Below, one piece after another: positions 3,902 to 62,998 of a DNA stretch of 64,000 nt; the stretch's first letter is position 1; every line of letters begins with the position of its first letter. Source of the DNA: Candidatus Tayloriibacteriota bacterium (GTDB taxonomy: Bacteria; Patescibacteriota; Minisyncoccia; Phycocordibacterales; PALSA-1337); the NCBI GenBank assembly GCA_052034805.1, contig JBPOID010000004.1, positions 23,236-87,235 of the forward strand. Reading direction: 5' to 3'. A program made the position numbers and the translations under genes. The notes under the pieces are model-generated. The model searched no databases, had not been told where the DNA came from, and was given only the letters and a program-made list of their open reading frames with translations.

Positions 3902-4573
3902 GTGAAAAGAATCATTCAGTTTGTAATTCTGTTCGTACTTTCATTCTTCGTAGGCACAGAGACGCATGGACAAAGCGCTCTGGTCAAAAAGTACAGTTAC
4001 TACTATAGATATGTTAATGATGGGTACGGCAATATTTATCAGGATAAATACAATCTCAATGCAGATGGTAATGGATCCTTGGTGAGAACCATAACGTACT
4101 CAGATCGTTGGGCCGAAGATTATGGATACCAGCGCTCAGAAGAGATTTGGATTTGGCGTGTTAAAGGTACCAAGAAATGGGCTGACTATTCGAAAAAATA
4201 CTATGAATGGTTACCAAAAAGAACACCACTTCCCAATATCCAAAAAACAATTCCCAATGAATCTCAACCGCCACTATTCAATCTTGCCGGTAATAGAACA
4301 TGGAGTGTACGTCATGATGATTTTGGGATAATAACTTATGCCAATTACTATGAAGAAGGTAGTTTAACCTATTATTATTCTGGTGATATCAAACCAGTTG
4401 ATAATGTCTTCTACGGCGTACAACAAGGTGATGATAATCCCAATCAATCGGTTGATATGTTCAAAGAATTGGTTAGTGTTTCTGGTACTGGAGATATAAG
4501 TCTCCTTGCAAAACAAATCAATGGGATGTTTGATGTTGTCAATTATTACCGTCTCTACATCGACATTCAGTAA
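3902..4573 (+). CDS. Secreted Tyr-rich hypothetical protein, paralog A (signal peptide; GTG start)
   Basis: 223 aa with an N-terminal signal peptide; C-terminal 70 aa nearly identical to the convergent paralog (YYSGDIKPVDNVFYGVQQ...VNYYRLYIDIQ). Local GC is higher than the flanks. Confidence 0.6.
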   Translation: MKRIIQFVILFVLSFFVGTETHGQSALVKKYSYYYRYVNDGYGNIYQDKYNLNADGNGSLVRTITYSDRWAEDYGYQRSEEIWIWRVKGTKKWADYSKKYYEWLPKRTPLPNIQKTIPNESQPPLFNLAGNRTWSVRHDDFGIITYANYYEEGSLTYYYSGDIKPVDNVFYGVQQGDDNPNQSVDMFKELVSVSGTGDISLLAKQINGMFDVVNYYRLYIDIQ

Positions 4574-4723
4574 GCTCTAGTATTTACTAGAAAGCTGACA
4601 ATTTCAAAAAACCTAACACATTAGTGTTGGGTTTTCTTTTTATTCTAATAGAAAAGACCTAGCACCGAAGTACTAGGTCTTGTGAAAATGTCTTAGATCA
4701 GTTAATTATCTATAACCAACCGA

Positions 4724-5395
4724 TCACTGAATATCGACATAAAGTCGATAGTAATTAACCACATCGTATAAACCATAAATTTCTGCTGGTAATACGATGT
4801 CTCCCGTGCCAGAGACGCTGACAAATTCCTTGAACATATCAACCGATTGATCAGTATTATCTCCGTACAGATATTGTTGCACTCCGTAGAAGACATTATC
4901 AACAGGTTTAATATCGCCAGAGTAATGATATGTGAGACTTGCTCTTACAGAACGTATCACATCTCCGTTCTCATCCATATAGTAACTATTGCCAGCAAGA
5001 TTGAAAAGTGCTGGCTGAGAATCATTAGCAATAGTTTTACTAACATCTGGCAAAGGGATTCTACCCTTCATCCATCCAATGTATTTAAACGTATAGTCAG
5101 CCCATTTCTTGTTACCCTTAACACGCCATCGCCAAGTCTCCTCTGTGCTTCTGTATCCATAGTCTAAAACCCAATCATCTTCATAGGTTGTTGTTTTAGT
5201 TAAGGTTCCATTACCATCTAATCTCAGATTGTATTCCTCCTTGTATGTTCTACCGGTCATTCTTGAAAAAATAGACTTCTCGTAATAACTGGCAGTCTTG
5301 ACGAGAGGACTCTGAGCATTCACTTCTCCCATACCCATGAAGAAATAGAGCAAGGAGAGAACCGACATGAACATGCCGACAATTGATTTTTTCAC
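4724..5395 (-). CDS. Secreted Tyr-rich hypothetical protein, paralog B (signal peptide; GTG start)
   Basis: 223 aa, same length as and homologous to the 3902-4573 product; oriented tail-to-tail with it. Confidence 0.6.
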   Translation of the reverse strand: MKKSIVGMFMSVLSLLYFFMGMGEVNAQSPLVKTASYYEKSIFSRMTGRTYKEEYNLRLDGNGTLTKTTTYEDDWVLDYGYRSTEETWRWRVKGNKKWADYTFKYIGWMKGRIPLPDVSKTIANDSQPALFNLAGNSYYMDENGDVIRSVRASLTYHYSGDIKPVDNVFYGVQQYLYGDNTDQSVDMFKEFVSVSGTGDIVLPAEIYGLYDVVNYYRLYVDIQ

Positions 5396-5558
5396 GATGT
5401 TTCCTTCTTTTTTTTAATGAACTGTTGTTGTTTTGTTGTGCAATAAAGCGACATCTATCGTCTTATTACAAATCAGATAATACATCTAAATCTGACTTTT
5501 GTCAAAAAAAGATTAACAAGCTCAACAAATAAGTGCAACACTACATGTTGTCTCTACA

Positions 5559-6695
5559 CTAAACCCCTTGAGTATTTAGATCTACACCGAAACTCATTTC
5601 TGCTGTATTTACGAAGGTATCCCAATCTGTAGTGAATGCTTGTGGTTCTAGATGATCGCTATTATTTTTCAAACCAGGAATCTTCTTTACTGCTGTACCT
5701 ATAGCCAAGAATTCTATTATTCCATTTCCTAATTGATATACATATGTCTTTACACCGACAACTTCATCTGCACCTATTTCATCAGCTTCTTTATTTATTA
5801 TAGACAAGGCATTCTCACGAGCTTCATATACGAGATGTGATAATTCTGGTATTTCCCCTTTCGTAAAAGATTTGAAAAATGAAGTTATTCCACCTACAAG
5901 CCCCAGCGAATAAACTGAAGTACCTATTAATATTTTCATAGGAGCATATCCCATTTTATTTAAATTCCACATTTCTTGTGGAGTAAGATCACTAGTTACA
6001 ACTTTATCATTAGGTAATGATGGATTATGAGAAGCTGTACCTATCATTAACATTTCTTGAAGACCTCCAGTTATGAGTGGAAGTATTGTGGTCTCTATAC
6101 CTACAACAGAGTTTGCATTATGTTTCTTTGCTTCATTTATAATTCTTTCCAATGCAAGATGTCTTGTTTTATTGAAAATATCTGAGAATTCCTTTATCTC
6201 ACCACGAGCAAGAGTTTTCAAGGCACCTATTATACCACTCGCTATACCTATAGAATAAGCAACATTACCGAATACGAATCTCAATGGTTTATATCCGCAA
6301 TCAGTTTGTGCATACATATCCTGACCGTCTGTAGATGTACTAAAAGCAAATTCTTCTTTAGCACCATTATTTGATTTTGTATGTAGAGAAGAACCAACAG
6401 AAAGAAATTCTATATTTCCACCATGAAAGACTAATTCGCTTGTAACACCAGTAATACCTATAGCTCCCCTATCTTTCGCCTCTTTTTCCATTCTTTCTAT
6501 AGCAGATGCACGACCTTCTTCTATAAGATTAGTGAATTGTTCAACTTCTCCACCGATAATAGCTCTTATACCAGAACCTATACCTCTACCGAAACCCAAA
6601 GCATGCACACTATTACCAACCACTAGATCCCCCGCTTTATAACCTATTTTATCCAAACAATACATTTCATTTCCAGAAAGACCTGTTGTTTTCAT
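5559..6695 (-). CDS. Protein with three tandem DUF74/YbjQ-like domains (putative heavy-metal-binding family)
   Basis: Three internal repeats of about 105 aa each, each showing the YbjQ pattern (G..IRAIIGGE...A...EA...GA.G..GV......G..EF...GTA). Confidence 0.65.
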   Translation of the reverse strand: MKTTGLSGNEMYCLDKIGYKAGDLVVGNSVHALGFGRGIGSGIRAIIGGEVEQFTNLIEEGRASAIERMEKEAKDRGAIGITGVTSELVFHGGNIEFLSVGSSLHTKSNNGAKEEFAFSTSTDGQDMYAQTDCGYKPLRFVFGNVAYSIGIASGIIGALKTLARGEIKEFSDIFNKTRHLALERIINEAKKHNANSVVGIETTILPLITGGLQEMLMIGTASHNPSLPNDKVVTSDLTPQEMWNLNKMGYAPMKILIGTSVYSLGLVGGITSFFKSFTKGEIPELSHLVYEARENALSIINKEADEIGADEVVGVKTYVYQLGNGIIEFLAIGTAVKKIPGLKNNSDHLEPQAFTTDWDTFVNTAEMSFGVDLNTQGV

Positions 6696-6715
6696 AATTT
6701 TATTTTTATTAATTA

Positions 6716-7312
6716 TTAATTATTTTTAATTTCCAATAATTCTCCATTCTTGTATACCAAATATTTCGTAATACCTATAGAAGGCTCAACTGTCATAGGT
6801 TCATCATCTCCTCTTATAACATAATTAGCAGATATAATACCCTTATCAATATTTATATTCTGTGGAGATATTCTATCTCCCAAGAAAATAGCTTTTGTAC
6901 CCTTATAGCCATTTGATTCTCTTATGGCTCCAACAATATAGAAAAATATACCAGTGCCTCCTGTTTCTTGTGAAATAAAGAAAGTGGAATCCAATTTTCC
7001 ATCATCATTTATATCAGCTTCAACAGGTTTACCAAAAATCCTAGTTTCGATTTTTGCAGAACTGTTTTCTATATTATTTGAAGATACACCATTTCTCAAA
7101 GTAATATTTTCATCATCAATATTATATGTAATATTTAATGGATCAGAATCTATATTATCTTTAATAATATTTTCTTTTGATATGTCTTTTGCTTCTTTAT
7201 TTGGATAATACTTATCTCTTATATAAACAAAGGCAATAAATACTAGATATATTAATACTGCTGTAATCAATATTTTTATAATTAAGATAGATTTATTTGA
7301 ATTTTGATTCAT
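6716..7312 (-). CDS. Membrane-anchored hypothetical protein
   Basis: 198 aa; N-terminal TM helix (ILIIKILITAVLIYLVFIAFVYI) then a hydrophilic domain. Confidence 0.5.
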   Translation of the reverse strand: MNQNSNKSILIIKILITAVLIYLVFIAFVYIRDKYYPNKEAKDISKENIIKDNIDSDPLNITYNIDDENITLRNGVSSNNIENSSAKIETRIFGKPVEADINDDGKLDSTFFISQETGGTGIFFYIVGAIRESNGYKGTKAIFLGDRISPQNINIDKGIISANYVIRGDDEPMTVEPSIGITKYLVYKNGELLEIKNN

Positions 7313-7325
7313 AGCAATATGTCTG

Positions 7326-7396
7326 TGCGGGATGCGAGAATCGAACTCGCGACCACAGTTTGGAAAACTGTTATTATACCATTTAACTAATCCCGC
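7326..7396 (-). tRNA. tRNA-Gly (anticodon TCC)
   Basis: Hand-folded cloverleaf: acceptor gcgggat/atcccgc, anticodon stem acagt/actgt with loop tttccaa, T-loop ttcgatt; 71 nt; CCA not encoded. Confidence 0.8.
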
Positions 7397-7494
7397 TTTA
7401 CAATAAACAAATCATTTAATATAGATGGAATATGTATCAAATCTAATTTAATGATAAATCCTATACTATCAGAAAATATATTTTTAGCCAATTA

Positions 7495-7929
7495 TTATTT
7501 ATTGCTTTTATGATTTTCATCAACAACCTCTTTTATATCATCTACTTCTTTTTTTAACTCTTTTACTAGATCTTGTATATCATTCAATGTAGCTTCTTCT
7601 TCTTTTACCTCTTTTTCTGTCTTTTCATGTAATTTTCTTTGTTGTTTTAAGCCAGAAATAAGAATTGTATCCCCTATAAAATAAGAAACGAATAATCCTG
7701 TAGCCAAAAGCACTATAACAACAATTAACATATTTACTGGTTCATAGAAAATAAATCCCCAGAAACCACCCCTAGCCTGCAATATATCCGCCGTATGCCA
7801 TACTCCTCTCCAGAATAAAACTATCGCCACACCTCCTATAATCGTATATAGGATAGGATAATGACTTAAATGCCCTCTTACCTTATCTTCAAATTTATCA
7901 AAGAAATTAAGAATTTTTTTCCACATTTT
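7495..7929 (-). CDS. Hypothetical membrane protein. Likely true start is MWKKILNFF; the longer ORF-track call up to 8034 overlaps tRNA-Pro
   Basis: Two TM helices followed by an E/K-rich coiled-coil tail. The N-terminal extension in the ORF track runs through the tRNA-Pro gene. Confidence 0.5.
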   Translation of the reverse strand, partial: KMWKKILNFFDKFEDKVRGHLSHYPILYTIIGGVAIVLFWRGVWHTADILQARGGFWGFIFYEPVNMLIVVIVLLATGLFVSYFIGDTILISGLKQQRKLHEKTEKEVKEEEATLNDIQDLVKELKKEVDDIKEVVDENHKSNK

Positions 7930-7954
7930 GTTATATTCAATAAAAAATAAATTA

Positions 7955-8030
7955 TGGTCGGAGCGCCGGGATTCGAACCCGGAGTCGCCTGTTCCCAAAA
8001 CAGGAATGTTAGCCGTTACACTACGCTCCG
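7955..8030 (-). tRNA. tRNA-Pro (anticodon TGG), CCA encoded
   Basis: Acceptor cggagcg/cgctccg, anticodon stem cctgt/acagg with loop tttggga, T-arm ccggg-ttcgaat-cccgg, 3' ACCA. Confidence 0.8.
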
Positions 8031-8093
8031 TCACTTTTTAGAATACTAACATAATAATCTATAAAACTCCATAATTTTAGGCCTAATATATAT

Positions 8094-8462
8094 TTATAGA
8101 ATAATATTCTCCATAAAATCGATCTTTGCCCTTCTATTTACAGTATTCATATAAACAATAATCACATGAAACTTGAATTCTGCATCATAATGATATTTAT
8201 TCTCAGACATATAGGTTTGTATAGTCCTTTTGAGTCTTCTTTGCTTAAAAAGATGAATATTTTCCTCAGGTCTATAGCTTTTTAAGCCTTTCAATATAAT
8301 ACTTTTGACTTCAATAAAATGAATCATTTTGTCCTTGGCCGCAATAATGTCTATTTCTCCCCATTTTCTATTATAATTTCGTTCAATGATTAAAAACCCT
8401 TGTTTTACAAGATATTCACAAGCAATACTTTCACCTTTATTCCCAATATCTTTTGTATTCAT
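8094..8462 (-). CDS. yraN: YraN-family (UPF0102) endonuclease
   Basis: 122 aa; GE.IAC.YL...G...ERNY....GEIDIIA....IHFIEVK pattern characteristic of YraN. Confidence 0.7.
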   Translation of the reverse strand: MNTKDIGNKGESIACEYLVKQGFLIIERNYNRKWGEIDIIAAKDKMIHFIEVKSIILKGLKSYRPEENIHLFKQRRLKRTIQTYMSENKYHYDAEFKFHVIIVYMNTVNRRAKIDFMENIIL

Positions 8463-8499
8463 AACGTATATAAGCCATATTTATTGTCTTTTATAAACA

Positions 8500-8520
8500 G
8501 TATCCACAGACTTATCCACA
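8500..8520 (+). promoter_or_regulatory. Two tandem DnaA-box 9-mers (gTATCCACA gac TTATCCACA) embedded in a hairpin (acagac...gtctgt) in the yraN upstream region
   Basis: One perfect and one 8/9 match to TTATCCACA, 3 nt apart. Confidence 0.4.
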
Positions 8521-8624
8521 GTCTGTACATTAATCATTATAAAATAAGCCATTTCCTATGAGACTGGCTGTGTATTATTTTTAGACTTTTATAAAACCTA
8601 ATATTCCCTAAAATTCAAAGACTG

Positions 8625-8695
8625 TGCGGGTAAGGAGAATCGAACTCCTACCTCATCCTTGGCAAGGACGTGTCCTACCACTAAACGATACCCGC
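8625..8695 (-). tRNA. tRNA-Gly (anticodon GCC)
   Basis: gcgggtatcgtttagtggtaggaca...; anticodon loop ttgccaa; T-loop ttcgatt; 71 nt. Confidence 0.85.
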
Positions 8696-8874
8696 ATGTA
8701 TTCACTAAGTATTTATATATTTACTATATATTTACACTACCTACTATATTTTATGAACTATTTTGATTATAGCAGTTATTATTACTTTTTCAAATAATTC
8801 ATCATGATTCGACGATATTTCAACATATTCTAGACTATTATAGTCTATCTGGTCTGTTTAGGACCATATTCGGG

Positions 8875-8946
8875 TGCGCCCGGAGGGATTCGAACCCCCA
8901 ACAACGGTTCCGAAGACCGGTATGATATCCATTTCACTACGGGCGC
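8875..8946 (-). tRNA. tRNA-Arg (anticodon TCG, tentative)
   Basis: Acceptor gcgcccg/cgggcgc, T-arm ggggg-ttcgaat-ccctc, anticodon loop cttcgga with G37. The anticodon stem has one mismatch, so the isotype call is less certain. Confidence 0.6.
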
Positions 8947-8950
8947 ATAA

Positions 8951-9613
8951 TCATAGATTATAATACCTTATAAGTATCTTTTGCCAAGCAATAACTTTTC
9001 TATATAATTCAACACCAGATACCATAATAGCCAAAGAACCCTTGTATTCCCTATCTTTTATAGCTTTTGAAGAGTTTGTGTATATGGTTTTTTGAAATAA
9101 ATTCAATGGTATATCTATTGTTTTAGCCCATAAATCCTCAAAATTACCATTTCTATGAGAAATATTAATAAAAAGTCTGAATTTAGCTTTATTTTTCGAT
9201 ATATTCAGATATTTCTTCATCCATAAAACAATTATTTTCATAATATTACTGTCCTTACTCATAAAATAAATTGAATTCCCCTTTTTCAAACCATGTGCCC
9301 AATACAATCCAAGACCTAACATAAAGAATTGATCTTTGGAGAATTTTTCAAATTCTTTTAAAGCATTATCGTATGCAAATTTATCTTTAAAAACTTTTTT
9401 TGATCTAATTGCAATAGAAGAATTCATTCTACCTTTTGCAATTTTATTTTTTAGATTTTTTTCTAAATTTAATCTTTCATTTTCAGTTAATTTAATATTT
9501 TTTACCCAATTAGAAATAGAAGCTTTAGATACTTTAAGCTCTTTTGATATCTCTGAATAAGAAAATCCTAATCTTCTTAATTCAATGGCTCTTTTACTCG
9601 TTTGAACACCCAT
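8951..9613 (-). CDS. HTH-domain protein with a degenerate LAGLIDADG-like segment (hypothetical), directly abutting tRNA-Arg
   Basis: N-terminal resolvase-type HTH (LRRLGFSYSEISKELKVSKASISNWV); internal FMLGLGLYWAHGLKKGNSIYF resembles a LAGLIDADG motif but lacks the acidic residues. Confidence 0.45.
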   Translation of the reverse strand: MGVQTSKRAIELRRLGFSYSEISKELKVSKASISNWVKNIKLTENERLNLEKNLKNKIAKGRMNSSIAIRSKKVFKDKFAYDNALKEFEKFSKDQFFMLGLGLYWAHGLKKGNSIYFMSKDSNIMKIIVLWMKKYLNISKNKAKFRLFINISHRNGNFEDLWAKTIDIPLNLFQKTIYTNSSKAIKDREYKGSLAIMVSGVELYRKVIAWQKILIRYYNL

Positions 9614-9673
9614 TTTATTATTATATAATTATATACTAGTATTCAATACTATGCAAAATAAAGATATAATGCT

Positions 9674-11164
9674 ATGATAGTTTTGATGAAAAAAACTACC
9701 ATTCCAACAGAAATTACAACAGTTATTGAGACACTTGAAAAGAGTGGCTATGAAGCATACCTAGTTGGAGGATGTGTTAGAGATCTATTGTTAGGAAGAA
9801 TTCCTAGAGACTGGGATGTTACAACAAATGCCATACCAGAAAACATAATTCCCCTATTCCCCAAGACTTTTTATGAGAATGATTTCGGTACTGTAGGGGT
9901 TGTAAATGAAAATACCAAACATGAGAATCTAAGTGTAGTAGAAGTTACCCCATACAGAATAGAAACTAATTACAGTGACTTCAGACATCCAGATGAAGTT
10001 AAGTTTAGTAACAAAATAGAAGATGATCTAGGACGTCGTGATTTCACTATCAATGCAATCGCAGTGAGTATATCGAATGGAGCTATAAAGGACATAATCG
10101 ATCTTTATGGTGGTTTTAAAGATTTAAAGGACAAAGTCATAAGGACAGTCGGAAAACCTGAAGACAGATTCAAAGAAGATGCTTTGCGTATAATAAGAGC
10201 TGTCAGATTGGCTACAGAATTAGGTTTTACACTAGAAAAAAGCACAGAAATGGCTATACATAGCCATATTTCCCTATTAAACAAGATATCTGCAGAGAGA
10301 ATACGTGATGAATTTATAAAGATAATTATGTCAAAAGAACCCAAAAAAGGCATAGAAATGCTTGAGAAAACAGGTATTTTGGCAATTATAATACCAGAAC
10401 TAGTAAGATCTATAGGTGTAAAACAAAATCAAGCTCATGCGTATGATGTCTGGGAACATCTACTCAGAACATTACAACATTCAGCCGATAAAGACTGGCC
10501 ATTAGAAATACGCCTTTCTGCCCTATTTCATGATATTTCCAAGCCAGAAACAAAGAACTTTTCACGTGAAACACAGCAAATAACGTTTTATGGCCATGAG
10601 GTTGTTGGTTCACGTGTAACAAAAAAGATTCTAGAGAGACTAAGGTTTCCATTAAAAACAATAGAAAAGGTCACAAAAATGGTTAGATGGCATATGTTCT
10701 TCTCTGATACAGAATCAATTACATTGTCTGCAGTTAGAAGAATGATAAACAATGTTGGACGTGAAAACATCTGGGATCTAATGAATATAAGAATATGTGA
10801 CAGAATCGGTACAGGTAGACCAAAAGAAAACCCCTATAGATTAAGAAAATATAAATCAATGGTTGAAGAAGCCTTAAGAGATCCCATTTCTGTAAATATG
10901 CTTAAAACCGACGGTAAACATCTTATGGAGGTTACACATGAAACACCAGGACCTAAAATAGGCCATATTTTGCATATTCTATTAGAAGAAGTATTGGATA
11001 ATCCAAAACTCAATACAATTGAATATTTAGACAAAAAAGCTATAGAATTAGCCAAATTATCTGAAAAAGAGCTAAAAACAATGGGAGATGAAGCTAAAAA
11101 GAAAAAAGGGGAGTTGGAAGAAGAAAGTCTTGAAGAAATAAGGAAAAAGTACTTTGTTTCATAA
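9674..11164 (+). CDS. cca: CCA-adding tRNA nucleotidyltransferase with HD domain and a C-terminal extension
   Basis: Pol-beta-type head motif GGCVRDLLLG...DWDV, HD domain (HDISK), 496 aa. Confidence 0.85.
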   Translation: MIVLMKKTTIPTEITTVIETLEKSGYEAYLVGGCVRDLLLGRIPRDWDVTTNAIPENIIPLFPKTFYENDFGTVGVVNENTKHENLSVVEVTPYRIETNYSDFRHPDEVKFSNKIEDDLGRRDFTINAIAVSISNGAIKDIIDLYGGFKDLKDKVIRTVGKPEDRFKEDALRIIRAVRLATELGFTLEKSTEMAIHSHISLLNKISAERIRDEFIKIIMSKEPKKGIEMLEKTGILAIIIPELVRSIGVKQNQAHAYDVWEHLLRTLQHSADKDWPLEIRLSALFHDISKPETKNFSRETQQITFYGHEVVGSRVTKKILERLRFPLKTIEKVTKMVRWHMFFSDTESITLSAVRRMINNVGRENIWDLMNIRICDRIGTGRPKENPYRLRKYKSMVEEALRDPISVNMLKTDGKHLMEVTHETPGPKIGHILHILLEEVLDNPKLNTIEYLDKKAIELAKLSEKELKTMGDEAKKKKGELEEESLEEIRKKYFVS

Positions 11165-11278
11165 AAATTAAGGTTATTTTGATAGAATAACCAGTAATAT
11201 CAATGTAATTTAAATAAAATTATATTGATATTGATGTAATTATTACAGTAATAATGCAATTTAAATATGGAAAATAGG

Positions 11279-11310
11279 AAGGTGTTTCATATGAAACACC
11301 TTTTGCTTTA
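11279..11310 (+). terminator. Rho-independent terminator (perfect palindrome aaggtgtttcat|atgaaacacctt followed by a T-run)
   Basis: Read from the sequence, downstream of cca. Confidence 0.55.
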
Positions 11311-11399
11311 TATGGTTAAATTAGAGATTATAAGGAAAATCATGCATAAAAACATATATAGAAGTTATGTACAAGAAAAATAATGTATAGATAGAATCA

Positions 11400-11800
11400 C
11401 AATATGGTCATATAGACAAAACAAAACCGCGTTAATTGAACAAATTACGCAGTCCAGGTTAGGATTGAACTATATAATTTTGTTACTACAAAACGCGGTT
11501 TTTGGTGAAGTATGGAAAAGAAGGGGTCCACGGACCGATCGAAGCTGACCTCAATATCTACTATGGGAGGTTTTGCGCGTTACCTATCTAAAAAAATAAT
11601 TTCCCAGAGGGGAATAAAATAAATTGTGTTTGAAAAGGAACGCTTACCAAGCCTAAGCTGATAAAGGGTTGTCTTCTCTTCTTTATACTTCAAAAAAGAG
11701 CCTACTACCCACAAACTTTACAAAGAGCAATTGGATTGCTTCTACTCGGTTTTTATTTTGAAACATTCCTGATCTGTTTATATTCTATCATTACTAAAAG
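11400..11800. ncRNA. Candidate structured RNA of unknown identity in a 700-bp gene-free convergent intergenic region
   Basis: No ORF on either strand. Locally GC-enriched segments (ggggtccacggaccgatcgaagctgacc; ggtaacgcgcaaaacctccc). Closed by a long-range 12-bp inverted repeat caaaaccgcgtt...aacgcggttttg and several hairpins. Confidence 0.3.
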
Positions 11801-11876
11801 ACATGTAAAGGACATATAATAGGGTAACTGTGGATAAGTCCTTTATATTTTATTTGTCTTTTATAAAAGACAAAAT

Positions 11877-12662
11877 TTATTTTAAAATTAATTCAATAGG
11901 ACAATGATCAGAGCCTGTAATATTGGCTAATATATTCGACTTTTCCACATATTTCAAAACTCCTTCTGAAATAAAAAAATAATCAATTCTCCAACCAACA
12001 TTTCTTTCTCTTGCAAATGTTTTCATATCCCACCATGTATATGAATTAGTTTTTTTAGGATTTTCTTTTCTCCAAATATCTATATATCCTTCTTTAATTA
12101 TTTTATCTATCCATGCACGTTCCATCGGAAGAAATCCTGTATTATTTTCATTTTCTTTTGCTCTGGCTAAATCTATTTCATTATGTGCGGTATTAACATC
12201 ACCACAGAAAATTATTTCATATCCAGACTTTCTTTTTTTATTTATATAATTTAGAAATTCATCATAAAAGCGCATTTTATAATCCAATCTATCTGGACCG
12301 CCACCACCATTAGGGAAATAGCAATTTATCAATACAAATTTTATTCCTATAAGACTTTTATCATAAAATAGGGCTAAAAACCTGCCTTCTTTATCAAATT
12401 CTTCTATACCTAAACCATATTCAACCTTTTCTGGTTTGTCTTTTGTATATACAGCAACACCGCTATAGCCTTTTTTCTCTTTTGAATGGTCAAAATAGGA
12501 ATAATAGCCCAATGGATTCCTAACTCCTTCATCTAATTGATCAGGATGGGCTTTGGTTTCTTGAAAACACATAAAATCAGGGGATTTTTGTAAAAACCAA
12601 TCAAATCCTCCTTTTTTCACATTTGCACGCAAACCATTCACATTCCAAGAAATTATATTCAT
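11877..12662 (-). CDS. xth: Exodeoxyribonuclease III
   Basis: MNIISWNVNGLRA...FMCFQETK...; 261 aa, ExoIII/AP-endonuclease fold motifs. Confidence 0.9.
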   Translation of the reverse strand: MNIISWNVNGLRANVKKGGFDWFLQKSPDFMCFQETKAHPDQLDEGVRNPLGYYSYFDHSKEKKGYSGVAVYTKDKPEKVEYGLGIEEFDKEGRFLALFYDKSLIGIKFVLINCYFPNGGGGPDRLDYKMRFYDEFLNYINKKRKSGYEIIFCGDVNTAHNEIDLARAKENENNTGFLPMERAWIDKIIKEGYIDIWRKENPKKTNSYTWWDMKTFARERNVGWRIDYFFISEGVLKYVEKSNILANITGSDHCPIELILK

Positions 12663-50909: not shown

Positions 50910-51797
50910 GTGAATAAAGAACAAATAGAAAAAAGAATAAAAGAACTAGAAGACTCAATGTTTGAGCCAAGCTTTTGGAATGACAAAGATAAAGCACAGT
51001 CAGTAATATTGGAAATAAAGAAATTAAAAGAAGAGCTCGAAGGCGTGGGTAAATATGATAAAGGCAATGCTATATTATCCATACTTGCTGGTGCTGGAGG
51101 AGATGATGCAGAAGATTTCGCCATGATGCTTGTGAGAATGTATAAAAAATACTTTGACAGTGTATTCTGGTCAGTGTCTATAATCCATGAGAATACAAAT
51201 GATCATGGTGGTTATAGAAATATAACTTTAGAAGTAAAAGGGAAGGGAGTGTATGGTTTATTAAAAAATGAATCAGGTGTACATCGTCTAGTTCGTATAT
51301 CACCATTCAATGCAAATCAAAAGAGACATACATCGTTTGCTCTTGTAGAAGTTTTACCTGAATTCGAAAAGACCAAAGAAAAAGATATGGAAATAAATGA
51401 GAATGATATAGAAGTATCAATAGCGAAATCAGGAGGTCCAGGTGGTCAAAATGTAAATAAAAGAGAAACAGCAGTAAGACTTGTACATAAACCAACAGGT
51501 ATATCTATACATGTAACAAGCGAACGTTCTCAAGCTCAGAATAAAGAAAAAGCTTTCGATATACTCAGGGCTAAACTCTGGAAGAAAATGGAAAGTGACA
51601 GATTGGCAAAAGAAAAAGGTATGCAGATTTCCTCTACAACATCTATAGAATGGGGGAATCAAATACGTTCTTATGTTATGCATCCATATAAAATGGTAAA
51701 AGATCATAGAACCGGTTTAGAAACTGCCCAAGTTGATAAGGTTTTTGATGGAGAAATAGAAGGATTCCTACAAGCTGAAAAGGATATTGTGATATAA
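50910..51797 (+). CDS. prfB: Peptide chain release factor 2 (reduced N-terminal domain; GTG start; no frameshift site evident)
   Basis: SPF tripeptide ([16 protein letters not shown]) and GGQ motif ([17 protein letters not shown]); 295 aa. Confidence 0.85.
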
Positions 51798-51804
51798 TCA
51801 AAGT

Positions 51805-52485
51805 ATGATTTATTTCGATAAAGTTACAAAGGTTTACCCAGATGAATCTATAGCATTAGACGGTGTAAGTTTCGCTGTAGAACCAAAAGAATTCATAACA
51901 ATAGTTGGTCATTCTGGTGCTGGAAAAACTACCCTAATAAAGATGCTTATAGCCGAAGACAAACCTACTGATGGGGCTATATTCTTTGAATCAAAGAATA
52001 TACATAAATTAAAAAGAAAAGATATGAATAAATTAAGACGTCGTATCGGTACTGTCTTTCAAGATTTTCGTCTTATACCTAACAAAACTGCTTATGAAAA
52101 CATAGCTTTCGCTATGGAAGTTTCTGGACATACAGATAAAGAAATAGCATCAGATGTTCCTTATGTATTAGATTTGGTTGATCTAGGTGATAAGATGTGG
52201 AATTTCCCTCATCAACTTTCTGGCGGAGAGAAACAAAGAGTAGCTATAGCTAGAGCCATAGTCAATCAGCCAGATATAATAATAGCCGACGAACCAACAG
52301 GAAGCGTTGATCCTATAAATACCTATGGAATTATAAAAATTTTACAGAAAATAAATGAATTAGGAACTACTATACTTATGACAACTCATAATAAAGGAGT
52401 TGTAGATACTGTAGGTGGAAGAGTTATAACAATGGAAAAAGGCAAAGTTGTAAGAGATGATAAAGAGGGAAAATATATTCTATAA
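51805..52485 (+). CDS. ftsE: Cell division ATP-binding protein FtsE
   Basis: ABC ATPase with GHSGAGKTT, LSGGEKQR, IIADEPTG; followed by ftsX. Confidence 0.9.
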   Translation: MIYFDKVTKVYPDESIALDGVSFAVEPKEFITIVGHSGAGKTTLIKMLIAEDKPTDGAIFFESKNIHKLKRKDMNKLRRRIGTVFQDFRLIPNKTAYENIAFAMEVSGHTDKEIASDVPYVLDLVDLGDKMWNFPHQLSGGEKQRVAIARAIVNQPDIIIADEPTGSVDPINTYGIIKILQKINELGTTILMTTHNKGVVDTVGGRVITMEKGKVVRDDKEGKYIL

Positions 52486-52503: not shown

Positions 52504-53460
52504 ATGTTATTTACATATTTAAAAAGAATAATAAAAACAGGATTTATAAACTTTTGGAGAAATGGTTTTCTTTCTTTCGCTGCTATTATAATTCTTACTC
52601 TATCGCTATCTTCTTTCGGTGCTCTCATGTTCGGTAGTGCCTTTGGCAAAACTCTCATAGAGGAAGTGAAGAATAAAGTTGATATAAATGTTTATTTCAC
52701 ATTGAATGCGCAAGAATCAGATATTTTGAATTTAAAGAAAACTATAGATCAATTAGGAGAAGTGGATAAAACAGAATATATATCTAGAGATCAAGTATTG
52801 GCAAATTTCAAAGATAAATGGAAAGACAATGCAAGAATATTACAAGGTCTAGATGAAGTGGGGGACAATCCTTTCCCAGCGGTTTTGAATATAAAAGCAA
52901 AAGAACCATCTCAATACGCTGGTATAGCTAGATTCCTAGATGGCAAGAATTCTTTATCAAAGGATGGAGACAATATAATAGACAAAGTTAATTATAATCA
53001 AAATAAAGTAGTTATTGATAGATTGGGAAAGATTATTCCTTTCGCAGAGAGAACAGCTTCTTTTATAGCTATAGTATTTGTAATTATATCTATAATCATT
53101 ACTTTCAATACTATTCGTCTCGTTATATATAATTCTAAAGATGAAATTTCTGTTATGAAGCTTGTTGGTGCTTCGAATTCCTATGTTAGGGGACCATTCG
53201 TCATGTCTGGAATAATGTATGGCATATTCTCGGGAATATTGACGCTCATCATTCTTTTTACTTTTTCTTATTACAGTGATTTGGCAATAATGAAAATAGC
53301 TGGTGTAGAGAATTCAGCAGATCTTGGTCTTATAATAAATATATTTTCTCAATATTTCATATCAAATTTCGGAGAAATTTTCGCAATAGTTATGACTTCT
53401 GGTATTGTCTTGGGGGCGATATCTAGCTATATGGCGGTACGTAGATATTTGAAGGTTTAG
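52504..53460 (+). CDS. ftsX: Cell division permease FtsX
   Basis: 318 aa; TM1, large extracellular loop, three C-terminal TMs; downstream of ftsE. Confidence 0.85.
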   Translation: MLFTYLKRIIKTGFINFWRNGFLSFAAIIILTLSLSSFGALMFGSAFGKTLIEEVKNKVDINVYFTLNAQESDILNLKKTIDQLGEVDKTEYISRDQVLANFKDKWKDNARILQGLDEVGDNPFPAVLNIKAKEPSQYAGIARFLDGKNSLSKDGDNIIDKVNYNQNKVVIDRLGKIIPFAERTASFIAIVFVIISIIITFNTIRLVIYNSKDEISVMKLVGASNSYVRGPFVMSGIMYGIFSGILTLIILFTFSYYSDLAIMKIAGVENSADLGLIINIFSQYFISNFGEIFAIVMTSGIVLGAISSYMAVRRYLKV

Positions 53461-53646
53461 TATAGATGATTCCAAACTATTGGAATATTTACATATATTG
53501 ACTTATGGTGTTTTGTATGATAATATCCTTATTAGATTAATGAATATTTACATATATGAAGTACTGTTTTTGATGGGAGTCAGAAATAGTGAACTGAAAG
53601 ATTTTCTCTAAAGTTCCATAGTGTAAATATTTGTAGGGGAGTTAAT

Positions 53647-54249
53647 ATGAACCTTGATGCTGTGTGTCGGTACATTGCCATGACAGAGTCCAATTGTGAG
53701 GACTGTAATGAAAGTCCTTATTATATTTGGAATCAAGTTAGGAGAATTCTCAATAATGATTTTGCTTGGAAGATCTTCTCAACCATGGTGGTGATTATAT
53801 CCTTCTTCATCTTCCTCTTTTGGAAGAAAAGTGGTCTTTCGGCCGTGAATCTTTTGCTCGGTTTTTTGCCGATCGCCATACTGTTGGTCTCGAGATTGTG
53901 TGTCTGTTATGTAGACAGATCAAATTCTCCAATGATTCTAAGTATGTACGAAGATGTATTACGCATAAAGTATCTCTTCGGAAGGAAAGCTTACAGATTG
54001 ATTCTGAGTGATGACGGTCTAAAGGATTTTGAAAAAGAAATCCTCGAACACCTTCACGAGTCTGCCGGAAAGATGGAAATTCTAAGATTATCCGGTAATA
54101 TGAATGTCGACTATTACATCGAAAAAGCTAGATTCACAGAAATGTGGGATCTAGCCATGAGGTTTGTCGACATAAAATCACATTCAGATGCTTTCCGAAC
54201 AGCATTTGAAGGGGAGGCAAAACTTCCTGATGGCTTCTGTACTGCATAA
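53647..54249 (+). CDS. Cys-rich two-TM hypothetical protein encoded in a GC-elevated island
   Basis: 200 aa; Cys-rich N-terminus (CRYIAMTESNCEDCNESPYY), two TM helices, soluble C-terminal domain. Local GC is clearly above the genome background. Confidence 0.5.
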   Translation: MNLDAVCRYIAMTESNCEDCNESPYYIWNQVRRILNNDFAWKIFSTMVVIISFFIFLFWKKSGLSAVNLLLGFLPIAILLVSRLCVCYVDRSNSPMILSMYEDVLRIKYLFGRKAYRLILSDDGLKDFEKEILEHLHESAGKMEILRLSGNMNVDYYIEKARFTEMWDLAMRFVDIKSHSDAFRTAFEGEAKLPDGFCTA

Positions 54250-54295
54250 CGCTATGAGGAGATCGGTTCTCCTAACTGAGCGTAGTTTGAACAAA

Positions 54296-54340
54296 AAGCG
54301 CGTCCTTGTCAGAAGACAAGGGCGCTTTCTTTTTATATTT
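54296..54340 (+). terminator. Rho-independent terminator (agcgcgtccttgtc-agaa-gacaagggcgct plus TTTCTTTTT)
   Basis: GC-rich stem and T-run read from the sequence. Confidence 0.65.
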
Positions 54341-54425
54341 TGAAACATCCATACACATATTTTGAAACATTCATACATATATTATGTCAACTTCTACTTT
54401 TGTTTTTATTTGATAAAATCAATAC

Positions 54426-56171
54426 ATGAAAAAGAGAAAATCCCGCATGATAGTAAAGAAGAAAATCCAAAAGAAAAATCCTCAAAAAAAGGTTCAAAAA
54501 TTTAATCATAAATATATTTTCGTTGTCGGTGGTGTTATGTCTGGTGTAGGGAAGGGTATAGCTACGTCTTCCATAGGTACTATACTTCATGCAAAGGGTT
54601 ATAATGTAAATCTTTCTAAAGTTGATCCGTATCTAAATGTAGATGCTGGAACTATGAATCCTACCGAACACGGTGAAGTCTTCGTTTTGAATTCAGGACT
54701 TGAAACAGATCAAGATATGGGGAATTATGAGAGATTTCTGAATCGAGATGTCTTGAAAGATGATTATATGACATCTGGTATGGTCTACAGAGATGTTATA
54801 GAAAGAGAAAGAAATCTCGGCTATGGTGGCAAATGTGTAGAAGCCGTACCTCATATAAGAGATGAAATAGTTCGTCGTTTCGAACATGCCGCTAAAGTCA
54901 ATAAATCAGAAATATCTATTATAGAAATTGGCGGTACTGTCGGAGATTATCAGAATATTATGTTTATAGAAGCTGCGAGACTTCTAAAGATAAAGCATCC
55001 AGATGATGTTTTGTTTATAATGGTTTCTTATTTACCTATACCATCGAAAATAGGTGAAATGAAATCAAGACCAACACAAAACGCTATACATCAATTAGCT
55101 TCATATGGAGTTTATACAGATATAATAATAGCTAGATCAGAAAAGCCTGTAGATAAAAAAAGAAAAGAGAAAATAGCAGTAGCTTGTAATATAAAAGAAG
55201 AAAATGTTATTTCTGCTCCAGATATAGATAGTATATATGATGTTCCTGTAAACTTTGAAAATGATAAATTAGCAGAGATTATACTAAATACATTCAAACT
55301 TGAACCAAGAAAGGGTGAAGGCCTAGGTAAATGGAAGGAATTCGCTCGCGGGGTAAAGAATTTCGATAAGGAGGTAAATATAGCAATAGTGGGTAAATAT
55401 TTTAATACTGGAGATTTCGTATTATCTGATTCATATTTATCTGTTATAGAAGCAATAAAATATTCAGCATGTGCAAATAAAGTTAAGCCGAAAATACATA
55501 CAATAAACGCTCGTGATTTCGAAAGTGATAATCCTAATTTCGTACCAGATTATTCATCTCTAAATAAATTTGATGGAATAATAGTTCCTGGGGGATTCGG
55601 AGAAACTGGTATAGCAGGAAAATTAAATGTAATACGTTATGCAAGAGAGAATAAAATACCTTATTTTGGTCTATGTTATGGTATGCAACTCATGACTATA
55701 GAATATGCTAGAAATGTATTGGGTTTGGAAAATGCAAATACAGCAGAAATAGATCCAAAGTCAGAACATTTGGTAATAGATATAATGCCTGATCAGAAAA
55801 AGAAATTAGAAGAAGGTAATTACGGTGGAAGTATGAGATTGGGTATTTATAAGGCAAATATTCTAAAAGGTTCAACAGCATATAGATCATATCTTTCTTC
55901 TGGATTCCATGGCAATGCATTGTCTATAGAAGAAAGACATCGTCATCGCTACGAAGTAAATCCTTTATATATAGAAAGATTAGAGAAGGGAGGTCTTGTA
56001 TTTTCTGGAAAATCTCCAGATGGAACTCTTATGGAAATAGCAGAATTACCAGATCATCCTTTCTTTCTAGGTACACAATTTCATCCAGAATTCCTAGCAC
56101 GTCCTATGAAGCCACACCCTTTATTTACAGAGTTTATAAAAGCTTCTATAAAAAATAAGAAAAACAATTAA
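54426..56171 (+). CDS. pyrG: CTP synthase with an unusual 28-aa Lys-rich N-terminal extension
   Basis: KYIFVVGGVMSGVGKGI..., glutamine amidotransferase C-terminus (GLCYGMQ, HPEF); 581 aa. Confidence 0.95.
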   Translation: MKKRKSRMIVKKKIQKKNPQKKVQKFNHKYIFVVGGVMSGVGKGIATSSIGTILHAKGYNVNLSKVDPYLNVDAGTMNPTEHGEVFVLNSGLETDQDMGNYERFLNRDVLKDDYMTSGMVYRDVIERERNLGYGGKCVEAVPHIRDEIVRRFEHAAKVNKSEISIIEIGGTVGDYQNIMFIEAARLLKIKHPDDVLFIMVSYLPIPSKIGEMKSRPTQNAIHQLASYGVYTDIIIARSEKPVDKKRKEKIAVACNIKEENVISAPDIDSIYDVPVNFENDKLAEIILNTFKLEPRKGEGLGKWKEFARGVKNFDKEVNIAIVGKYFNTGDFVLSDSYLSVIEAIKYSACANKVKPKIHTINARDFESDNPNFVPDYSSLNKFDGIIVPGGFGETGIAGKLNVIRYARENKIPYFGLCYGMQLMTIEYARNVLGLENANTAEIDPKSEHLVIDIMPDQKKKLEEGNYGGSMRLGIYKANILKGSTAYRSYLSSGFHGNALSIEERHRHRYEVNPLYIERLEKGGLVFSGKSPDGTLMEIAELPDHPFFLGTQFHPEFLARPMKPHPLFTEFIKASIKNKKNN

Positions 56172-62563: not shown

Positions 62564-62998
62564 ATGCCAGATATGAGGACATTGAGATTTTTGGGAAACC
62601 TTTTGGGGTTGGTGTTGTTGCTTGTCTCCGGCGTCGGTTGTGGTACCGTCGGAGACGCGCGGACTGTCGCCTATTGGCGATCTGATCCGTTATGTGATAC
62701 AAGGGTGGAAGTAGATCCGAACAACTTTGTTCGGAGAAGCTCGACCTATGTGTCGAACTTGGACGGGAGTTACCAATACTCTCACAGTCAGGGTACGGAC
62801 ATTTACGTAACCCAGACATGGTCCCCATGCGTGGGGAATAGAACCGAGGTACGTCAGAGTACCTACAGTAACACAAGTACCTATCAGAGTTCTGGTTCGT
62901 ACTATCCCTATCCCACCTTTACTTCCGGTGCTGGAGTATATGGTGGTTACAATTATGGTGGTAGTAGTATCCCACCCGGTAGAGGAATCTATCGTTAA
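62564..62998 (+). CDS. Small secreted / lipoprotein-like S/T/Y/G-rich protein encoded in a strongly GC-rich island
   Basis: 144 aa; signal peptide ...LLLVSGVGCG; local GC well above background. The antisense ORF 62562-62876 is judged spurious. Confidence 0.5.
   Translation: MPDMRTLRFLGNLLGLVLLLVSGVGCGTVGDARTVAYWRSDPLCDTRVEVDPNNFVRRSSTYVSNLDGSYQYSHSQGTDIYVTQTWSPCVGNRTEVRQSTYSNTSTYQSSGSYYPYPTFTSGAGVYGGYNYGGSSIPPGRGIYR

Follow-up and report, generated by a model that had tools for sequence, protein, structure and literature searches.

How did a 200-residue open reading frame (ORF) that is clearly richer in GC than the genome around it come to lie between ftsX and pyrG, and is it a foreign insert? 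The stretch of DNA analyzed here (the window) comprises 64,000 nucleotides (nt) from a Candidatus Tayloriibacteriota bacterium (GenBank assembly GCA_052034805.1, contig JBPOID010000004.1) and has a GC content of 31.5%. An earlier note on this DNA had described the ORF, which we call ORF200, as the center of a laterally acquired and separately regulated island in which short repeats might serve as operators. We show that the locus is a self-contained accessory transcription unit, with a predicted promoter, in a recurrently used ftsX-pyrG insertion site, and that its coding body has diverged beyond the neutral sites of the flanking genes inside a conserved regulatory frame. It is not a recent one-off foreign insert.

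The ftsX-pyrG junction and the carriers of ORF200

The gene and its two flanks are arranged as follows:

52504-53460, + strand: ftsX, the conserved left flank (Pfam FtsX_ECD and FtsX)
53647-54249, + strand: ORF200, the orphan ORF of 200 amino acids (aa), 603 bp
54426-56171, + strand: pyrG (CTP synthase), the conserved right flank (Pfam CTP_synth_N and GATase)

The same ftsX-ORF200-pyrG arrangement recurs in four further assemblies from different samples (L001-L004) at 99.7-99.8% nucleotide identity, and the locus is therefore not an assembly artefact. A word-indexed search of 5.8 billion protein clusters with ORF200 returned only ORF200 itself. An exhaustive phmmer search of 1.84 billion representatives added a single protein of 196 aa (P0002, 33% identity, E = 1.8e-12), and searches of the 5.8 billion clusters with P0002 or with the alignment of ORF200 and P0002 gave nothing beyond those two; about 15 billion proteins overall contained no further homologue. 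P0002 is encoded between ftsX and pyrG in L066 (GCA_964507375.1), the closest sister species of the window species, and its true start is probably located 11 codons further upstream (MNIEFICRYIAM, compared with MNLDAVCRYIAM in the window). The L066 species is also represented by a low-coverage contig, L067, from the same sample as the window species.

Relatives were retrieved via FtsX and are uncultured Patescibacteria throughout (labels Paceibacteria, Nomurabacteria and similar). Among them, 154-aa homologues are found directly 3' of ftsX in L070 (5035-5499) and L005 (7033-7497). The L070 gene corresponds to a partly masked copy in L006, in whose GTDB record a run of N (7194-7293) falls inside the gene, and to a truncated copy in L069; the unmasked sequence is that of L070, a JGI contig. 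In all three contigs the homologue sits between ftsX and pyrG. A hidden Markov model (HMM) built from the four family members had no match in approximately 130 other loci. The carriers thus fall into four lineages (the window species, L066/L067, L070/L006/L069 and L005), in which the gene always follows ftsX directly, and a neighbor-joining tree of FtsE and FtsX places the four in one clade. The comparison of related genomes that the earlier note had proposed consequently gave a divided answer, namely a gene at the same position within the immediate clade and its absence from about 90 further relatives that possess both ftsX and pyrG. ORF200 is an accessory gene and belongs to an orphan family confined to one small clade of the Paceibacteria type.

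A separate observation concerns the L005 contig, in which the family member is followed by purD and purN-like genes at 44-53% GC (7700-12161), compared with 29-36% GC in the upstream part, and in which pyrG is missing; the contig is either chimeric or carries a large foreign block.

The junction itself was surveyed in the 94 loci with both ftsX and pyrG. The distance from ftsX to the start of the PyrG match is below 250 bp in 77 of them (below 125 bp in 67) and 500-3400 bp in the other 17. The long gaps carry a 23S-rRNA-intervening-sequence protein (L024), a NUDIX protein (L022) or orphan ORFs (L016 and L060). In L011, the same junction (5486-8300) is occupied by a cassette resembling a diversity-generating retroelement (DGR). 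It consists of a 196-aa target ORF, a template-like second copy of its C-terminus that is rich in Asn codons (6234-6821), so that the two form a pair similar to a variable repeat (VR) and a template repeat, and a reverse transcriptase (PF00078, 6941-7993). These long gaps with unrelated cargo show that the junction is a recurrent insertion site in the group. A tRNA or other non-coding RNA was considered as the reason for this hot spot and rejected, as no tRNA or known non-coding RNA was found in the ftsX-pyrG gaps of 15 relatives.

The gaps of L012, L015, L020 and L016 contain a different, mutually conserved insert of approximately 300-500 bp. It has its own palindromic terminator-like element and a promoter-like region, TTGCAT...TGATAAAAT, ahead of pyrG, and shows no tRNA or Rfam match and no convincing ORF.

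Divergence and base composition of the coding body

Between the window species and L066, protein identity amounts to 97% for FtsE, 96% for PyrG, 84% for FtsX and 69% for the least conserved of the other neighbors; for ORF200 it is 34-36%. Across the four carriers, the ORF200 alleles share 16-36% of their residues versus 79-97% for FtsE and FtsX (FtsE 89-97%, FtsX 79-85%). A sliding identity profile against L066 delimits this divergence sharply:

53685-54295, + strand: hyper-divergent block, from codon 13 into the 3' untranslated region

Inside the block, identity is 30-45% in most 40-nt windows and increases to approximately 60% over conserved C-terminal motifs. To its left, identity to L066 is 75-95% from ftsX through promoter and leader to approximately codon 12, and to its right it recovers in the terminator and pyrG. 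Taken by themselves, the promoter, the leader, the first 12 codons and the terminator are 75-85% identical.

The coding body has dropped to random-level DNA identity, and its synonymous sites are saturated. Where the window and L066 proteins have the same residue, their genes also share the codon in 23 of 64 cases (36%), compared with 24.4 (38%) expected from the codon usage of the two genes, whereas the flanking genes share 65% of such codons (n = 3756; Fisher p = 2e-6 against ORF200). Four-fold degenerate sites match in 29% of cases (chance 26%) versus 56% in the flanks (chance about 37%). A second GC-rich gene served as a control for the same genome pair. This ORF (62564-62998, + strand) encodes a lipoprotein-like protein of 144 aa with a lipobox-like N-terminus (LLLVSGVGC) and a tail rich in Gly, Ser and Tyr, it has 49% GC and a GC content at third codon positions (GC3) of 0.50, and it matches neither Pfam nor Rfam. 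The L066 orthologue shares 81% of its residues, and in this pair codons agree at 62% of conserved residues and four-fold sites at 59% (p = 0.0015 for the comparison with ORF200). As the synonymous sites of this pair are unsaturated, high GC has been stably inherited in that gene, and GC-richness as such is not the cause of the saturation in ORF200. Hence, a raised GC content in AT-rich genomes of this kind is not a sufficient sign of recent transfer.

Within the species, the picture is entirely different: a single nucleotide polymorphism (I51M) is found in the 603 bp, no more than in the flanks (0.3%). For this reason we rejected ongoing local hypermutation or the action of a DGR.

The elevated GC content described in the earlier note was borne out by a sliding GC profile, and a codon comparison with the other genes showed that codon usage is atypical as well. 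The GC content of the ORF is 0.395 versus 0.315 for the window, and just 2% of 603-bp windows are that high. Its GC3 of 0.428 compares with a mean of 0.208 (standard deviation 0.057) for the 56 other ORFs (z = 3.8, rank 2 of 57), and the GC contents of the first and second codon positions are average. The shift extends across every codon class, with a four-fold-site GC of 0.44 versus 0.16, a G share in NNR codons of 0.41 versus 0.21 and a C share in NNY codons of 0.34 versus 0.20. In rpsO, the highly expressed gene of ribosomal protein S15, the shift is confined to two-fold codons. Translational selection was ruled out as the source of the high GC3 of ORF200 because its four-fold sites are shifted too, unlike those of rpsO, and the anomaly is therefore compositional and not a signature of high expression. 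All four alleles share it, with a GC3 of 0.36-0.47 versus 0.20-0.28 in the adjacent genes. The codon profile of ORF200 is similar to that of pyrG in L071, a relative with 47% GC.

The window contains a second GC-shifted islet at 3902-5395, where two convergent paralogous ORFs of 223 aa (3902-4573, + strand, and 4724-5395, - strand) are 57% identical to each other. Both have signal-peptide-like N-termini and no Pfam family, and their GC3 values are 0.34 and 0.38 versus 0.21.

On the far side of ftsX, the neighboring genes are ftsE (51805-52485) and prfB (50910-51797), the latter listed from a GTG start as a single 295-aa ORF.

The transcription unit and its product

The regulatory frame around the coding body is made up of the following elements:

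53483-53498, + strand: copy 1 of the 16-mer GAATATTTACATATAT, exact, abutting and overlapping the -35 hexamer
53498-53526, + strand: predicted sigma-70-type promoter TTGACT-17-TAATAT with a TG extension at 53518-53519 and a predicted start near 53533
53542-53557, + strand: copy 2 of the 16-mer GAATATTTACATATAT, exact, which is the 5' arm of leader helix P1
53542-53632, + strand: structured 5' leader with a three-way junction, in which P1 (53542-53558 paired with 53617-53632) encloses hairpins P2 and P3
53635-53641, + strand: Shine-Dalgarno sequence AGGGGAG, 5 nt ahead of the ATG and just 3' of P1
54293-54335, + strand: intrinsic terminator with an A-tract, an 11-bp stem (54300-54325) and a T-tract
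54335-54382, + strand: tandem duplication of a 22-bp AT-rich element 5' of pyrG, 20 of 22 positions identical
54385-54395, + strand: TGTCAACTTCT box, conserved upstream of pyrG
54411-54419, + strand: extended -10-like sequence TGATAAAAT, 6 nt before the pyrG ATG

The promoter that the earlier note had pointed out is present, and so is the upstream repeat, which is an exact 16-mer whose second copy lies 1-2 nt from the position given there. A match to the promoter consensus is by itself not above chance (12 sites in the window versus 12.2 expected in shuffles). The predicted promoter is credible because it is conserved in relatives: L066 has an identical -35 hexamer and TGa ahead of the -10 hexamer, L070 and L005 have TTGACT/TTGACA right after the ftsX stop codon, and L071 has TTGACA-16-TATAAT in the same place. 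A terminator scan of 53461-53646 found none between ftsX and this promoter. The 16-mer has no additional exact copy in the window, and with up to two mismatches allowed there are 7 matches versus 2.5 expected from shuffles. At the position of copy 1, L066 has GAACCATTACATCTCTAT, so that copy 1 is not kept as a repeat there.

The leader has a minimum free energy of -30.8 kcal/mol (z = -3.2). It is approximately 80% identical between the window and L066, and all 34 of its 34 base pairs are kept, four of them by compensatory changes. Copy 2 of the 16-mer is part of a helix that compensatory changes have preserved, which suggests selection for base pairing in the RNA instead of for a DNA motif. 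A covariance model of the two sequences, run against 122 sources, found one extra copy in L071 (5017-5131; 26 bits, E of about 0.001-0.008). This copy is located in the ftsX-pyrG gap approximately 10 nt 3' of the TTGACA-16-TATAAT promoter. In the three-sequence alignment, which was fitted to the covariance model, 95% of the cells are paired and both partners have changed in 14 of the 34 pairs, a result equaled by none of 500 shuffles; slid controls were paired in about 40%. None of 4227 families of Rfam 15 matched the leader of the window, L066 or L071 at E<=1. The leader is a predicted structured RNA, undescribed so far, as judged from covariation across three lineages, and with low confidence we suggest that it would act as a 5' stabilizer or cis-regulator. 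The Shine-Dalgarno sequence is unpaired in the predicted fold and is identical in L066.

L071 falls outside the clade of carriers, and in its sister L008 ftsX and pyrG are 27 bp apart. The L071 leader precedes an unrelated hydrophobic ORF of 74 aa without a Pfam match, after which come a terminator, a GTCAACTT box, TGaTAcAAT and pyrG. The idea of a fusion, in which this 74-aa ORF would be a homologue of the transmembrane (TM) part of ORF200, was rejected because the two have no similarity.

The GC-rich terminator and the imperfect tandem repeat reported earlier are both present. The terminator has 7 GC pairs in its stem, a 4-nt loop and TTTCTTTTTA, and its fold has an energy of -35.4 kcal/mol (z = -5.0). 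In L066 the stem is preserved, although it differs around the apex and in the loop (gtcagaagac versus gccttcgggc), and AAAAAGCGC...GCGCTTTTCTT is common to the terminators of the window and L071. The 22-bp element has no other copy in the window (0.01 expected). It occurs as a single copy in L066 and L070, and the tandem is therefore a species-specific duplication; within the species it is fixed in the four other assemblies, with no insertion or deletion in L001-L004. The TGTCAACTTCT box does not recur within the window. Together with the extended -10 sequence it is conserved in L066, L070 (TGcTAGAAT) and L071 (TGaTAcAAT), and the two likely constitute the pyrG promoter, which pyrG would need once the terminator uncouples it from ftsEX. 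In L070, there is no alternative pyrG start downstream before the conserved core. The pyrG mRNA may thus be leaderless or nearly so in the lineages of the window species, L066, L070 and L071.

Taken together, the predicted sigma-70-like promoter with its extended -10 element would fire just past the ftsX stop codon. The transcript would open with the three-helix leader of about 90 nt, followed by a strong Shine-Dalgarno sequence, the 200-aa ORF and the intrinsic terminator. The predicted promoter, leader and terminator are in agreement with the separate regulation proposed in the earlier note.

The product begins with a conserved motif, M-N-x-x-x-x-C/R-R-Y-I. Hydropathy places a two-TM hairpin at approximately residues 41-88, and an alpha-helical C-terminal domain (about 95-190) contains the conserved motifs FG, GTxEEL, ESAGxME, RFTEMW and FV. 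Of these parts, the 154-aa homologues lack the TM hairpin but have retained the RYI motif at the N-terminus and the helical domain at the C-terminus. An AF2 model computed from the two-sequence alignment has a pLDDT of 72 overall and 80-93 in the C-terminal domain, and a single-sequence model is poor (pLDDT 51). Fold searches with the model returned generic helices only and matched no known fold. Pfam-A, NCBIfam, PADLOC and PHROGs contain no significant profile and the PDB no sequence match; the best profile match, Pfam RRM_5 (E = 0.094), is under its cut-off, and no family was repeated among the four members. A viral contig scan and a tblastn search against phages and plasmids also gave no match. 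ORF200 represents an undescribed protein family of four members, for which a confident all-helical model is predicted. The two TM segments, the helical C-terminal domain and the lack of a family agree with the earlier description; the Cys-rich N-terminus is not a conserved property, as only Cys7 is common to ORF200 and its closest homologue.

A signal peptide is absent from the conserved domain, the TM hairpin is flanked by positive charges on its N-side, and TM segments are missing altogether from two of the four alleles. Our low-confidence reading is that the domain probably acts in the cytoplasm, tethered by the TM hairpin in two lineages and soluble in the other two.

Origin of the locus and comparison with known systems

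What could have produced so divergent a coding body in so conserved a frame? The explanation that we favor is that the coding body was exchanged among related lineages by recombination in its conserved ends, or that it goes back to alleles that diverged long ago, the pool being GC-richer relatives; we consider it evenly balanced between right and wrong. Since the GC content of the wider clade spans 31-53%, GC-richer relatives exist and are a plausible source. The possible signs of exchange are the steep identity boundaries and the saturated synonymous sites, yet the alleles group for the most part as in the species tree, above all the window and L066. Several observations weigh against exchange. 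The synonymous samples are small, namely 64 codons and 24 four-fold sites. By similarity, the alleles group as window with L066 and L070 with L005, and for the window and L066 the split into 200-aa and 154-aa architectures agrees with the species tree, as simple vertical descent predicts; the tree of FtsE and FtsX does not pair L070 with L005. The conservation of the N-terminal motif and the terminator could reflect functional constraint instead of recombination break-points. No donor allele was found in any search. Finally, the leader match in L071 is modest (its E-value being only roughly calibrated), and the three-sequence alignment depends on the model to which it was fitted. A bolder version of exchange, which we regard as rather improbable, is that the frame of promoter, leader, terminator and pyrG promoter is an expression slot of Paceibacteria in which unrelated cargo ORFs are swapped between lineages, with the leader being a new cis-regulatory element or a recombination landmark. 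The cargo would be the TM-plus-helical 200-aa protein in the window and the unrelated 74-aa hydrophobic protein in L071, and such a slot would be a single-cassette gene-exchange platform without an integrase.

The strongest competitor to exchange is a single acquisition or origin in the ancestor of the four lineages, followed by strictly vertical and extremely fast evolution under relaxed or diversifying selection, with the GC-rich codons kept by selection. The carriers are monophyletic, and for the window and L066 both architecture and allele similarity follow the species tree. In addition, the regulatory elements (promoter, leader and terminator) are co-linear with the flanking genes, and the stably inherited GC-rich gene at 62564-62998 demonstrates for the same pair that high GC can persist. 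We nevertheless consider vertical descent unlikely, if a serious contender. At conserved residues, ORF200 retains no more synonymous identity than chance would give, compared with 56-65% in the flanks and the GC-rich control; a weakly constrained fast gene should drift to a GC3 of 0.2, yet the four lineages have 0.36-0.47; and the presence of the leader and the layout in the phylogenetically separate L071, with other cargo, needs extra losses or a transfer. The reading of the earlier note, that the gene is a recent lateral acquisition private to this genome with the repeats as operators, draws on the atypical composition, the gene's absence from most relatives, the 16-nt repeat flanking the promoter and the 22-bp tandem ahead of pyrG. 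The composition is indeed atypical, but homologues directly after ftsX in all three sister lineages largely refute the private and recent part. The operators fare no better, as copy 2 is a conserved RNA helix arm held by compensatory changes, copy 1 and the tandem have no conserved counterpart in L066 or L070, and neither motif occurs elsewhere in the window. We therefore judge this reading very improbable as a whole.

We assign a similarly slight chance to the idea that the terminator (54300-54335) is a pyrG attenuator, i.e. a CTP-sensing reiterative-transcription switch of the PyrG-leader type, and that the ORF unit mainly serves the regulation of pyrG. As in the PyrG leader (Rfam RF02371), a terminator hairpin lies upstream of pyrG, and the L066 segment is a weak match to this family (27.9 bits, E = 0.23). 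However, this score is far under the gathering threshold of 65 and any GC-rich terminator would score likewise, the window has no match at E<=1, and the GGGC-type start and pyrimidine-tract logic that define the family are not found in the window. No such start is recognized 5' of the hairpin, the sole upstream promoter is that of ORF200 some 770 nt away, and in most relatives pyrG abuts ftsX without any leader. The least probable of all is that ORF200 is no real gene at all and represents a chance ORF, an assembly chimera or a structured RNA that is GC-rich for that reason. The lack of a family or annotation and the raised GC in an AT-rich genome would fit, but the ORF is intact and identically arranged in five independent assemblies of the species, intact homologous ORFs occur in three other species with protein motifs conserved where the DNA is unalignable, and a strong Shine-Dalgarno sequence, a confident helical model and the absence of an Rfam match argue in the same direction.

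How does the unit compare with known systems? Its leader resembles structured 5' leaders, such as stabilizer stem-loops and those of the riboswitch type, in that it occupies the stretch from approximately 9 nt past the predicted start of transcription to just ahead of the Shine-Dalgarno sequence. Unlike switching leaders, it has a P1 of 16 bp, which is unusually stable for a switching helix, and does not sequester the Shine-Dalgarno sequence in its predicted fold.

DGRs are common in bacteria of the candidate phyla radiation (CPR), and ORF200 resembles their targets in being a hypervariable gene in a CPR genome, with a DGR-like cassette at the same junction in L011. It differs from them in that the divergence extends over the whole coding body instead of being A-specific changes in a short VR, and in that the gene is nearly invariant within the species. 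No template/variable-repeat pair was found within 53300-54600, and the gene calls from about 10 kb upstream to 5.7 kb downstream of the locus include no reverse transcriptase. With regard to integron cassettes, the gene calls between 43.6 and 59.9 kb contain no integrase domain, attC sites not having been specifically modeled.

The genomes of Patescibacteria, or CPR bacteria, are tiny, and most of these organisms live as episymbionts. The best places to look for roles in host interaction, immunity or defense are the few genes with strong variation from one sister species to the next. The locus is a clean and small example of a variable locus in a tiny CPR genome, although its practical value will stay modest until its function has been established. 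Orphan immunity genes of polymorphic toxins and bacteriocins, as well as defense genes, are known from surveys of the Zhang/Aravind type. Like them, ORF200 is small, all-alpha, very divergent between close relatives and atypical in composition, and it forms a single-gene unit with its own predicted promoter. Its pattern of variation is like that of immunity or defense genes, and no test for membership of any such family was positive. Unlike the immunity gene of a polymorphic toxin, it has no cognate toxin next to it, the adjacent genes being ftsX and pyrG, and it matches no described Imm family and nothing in PADLOC, Pfam or PHROGs. By analogy alone and with low confidence, its role might be lineage-specific recognition, for example in immunity or defense.

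The closest parallel is offered by the replacement flexible genomic islands described by Lopez-Perez, Martin-Cuadrado and Rodriguez-Valera in 2014 (PMC4033161). Those are multi-gene clusters, they differ between strains of one species and their products are exposed glycan or surface structures, whereas here a single gene of 0.8 kb differs between species and its product is predicted to be cytoplasmic or membrane-tethered. In both cases, homologous or analogous but highly divergent content occupies the same position in relatives between conserved flanks, synonymous divergence is in excess, and homologous recombination in the flanks has been proposed. In these respects, the ftsX-pyrG locus would appear to behave like a miniature replacement flexible genomic islet.

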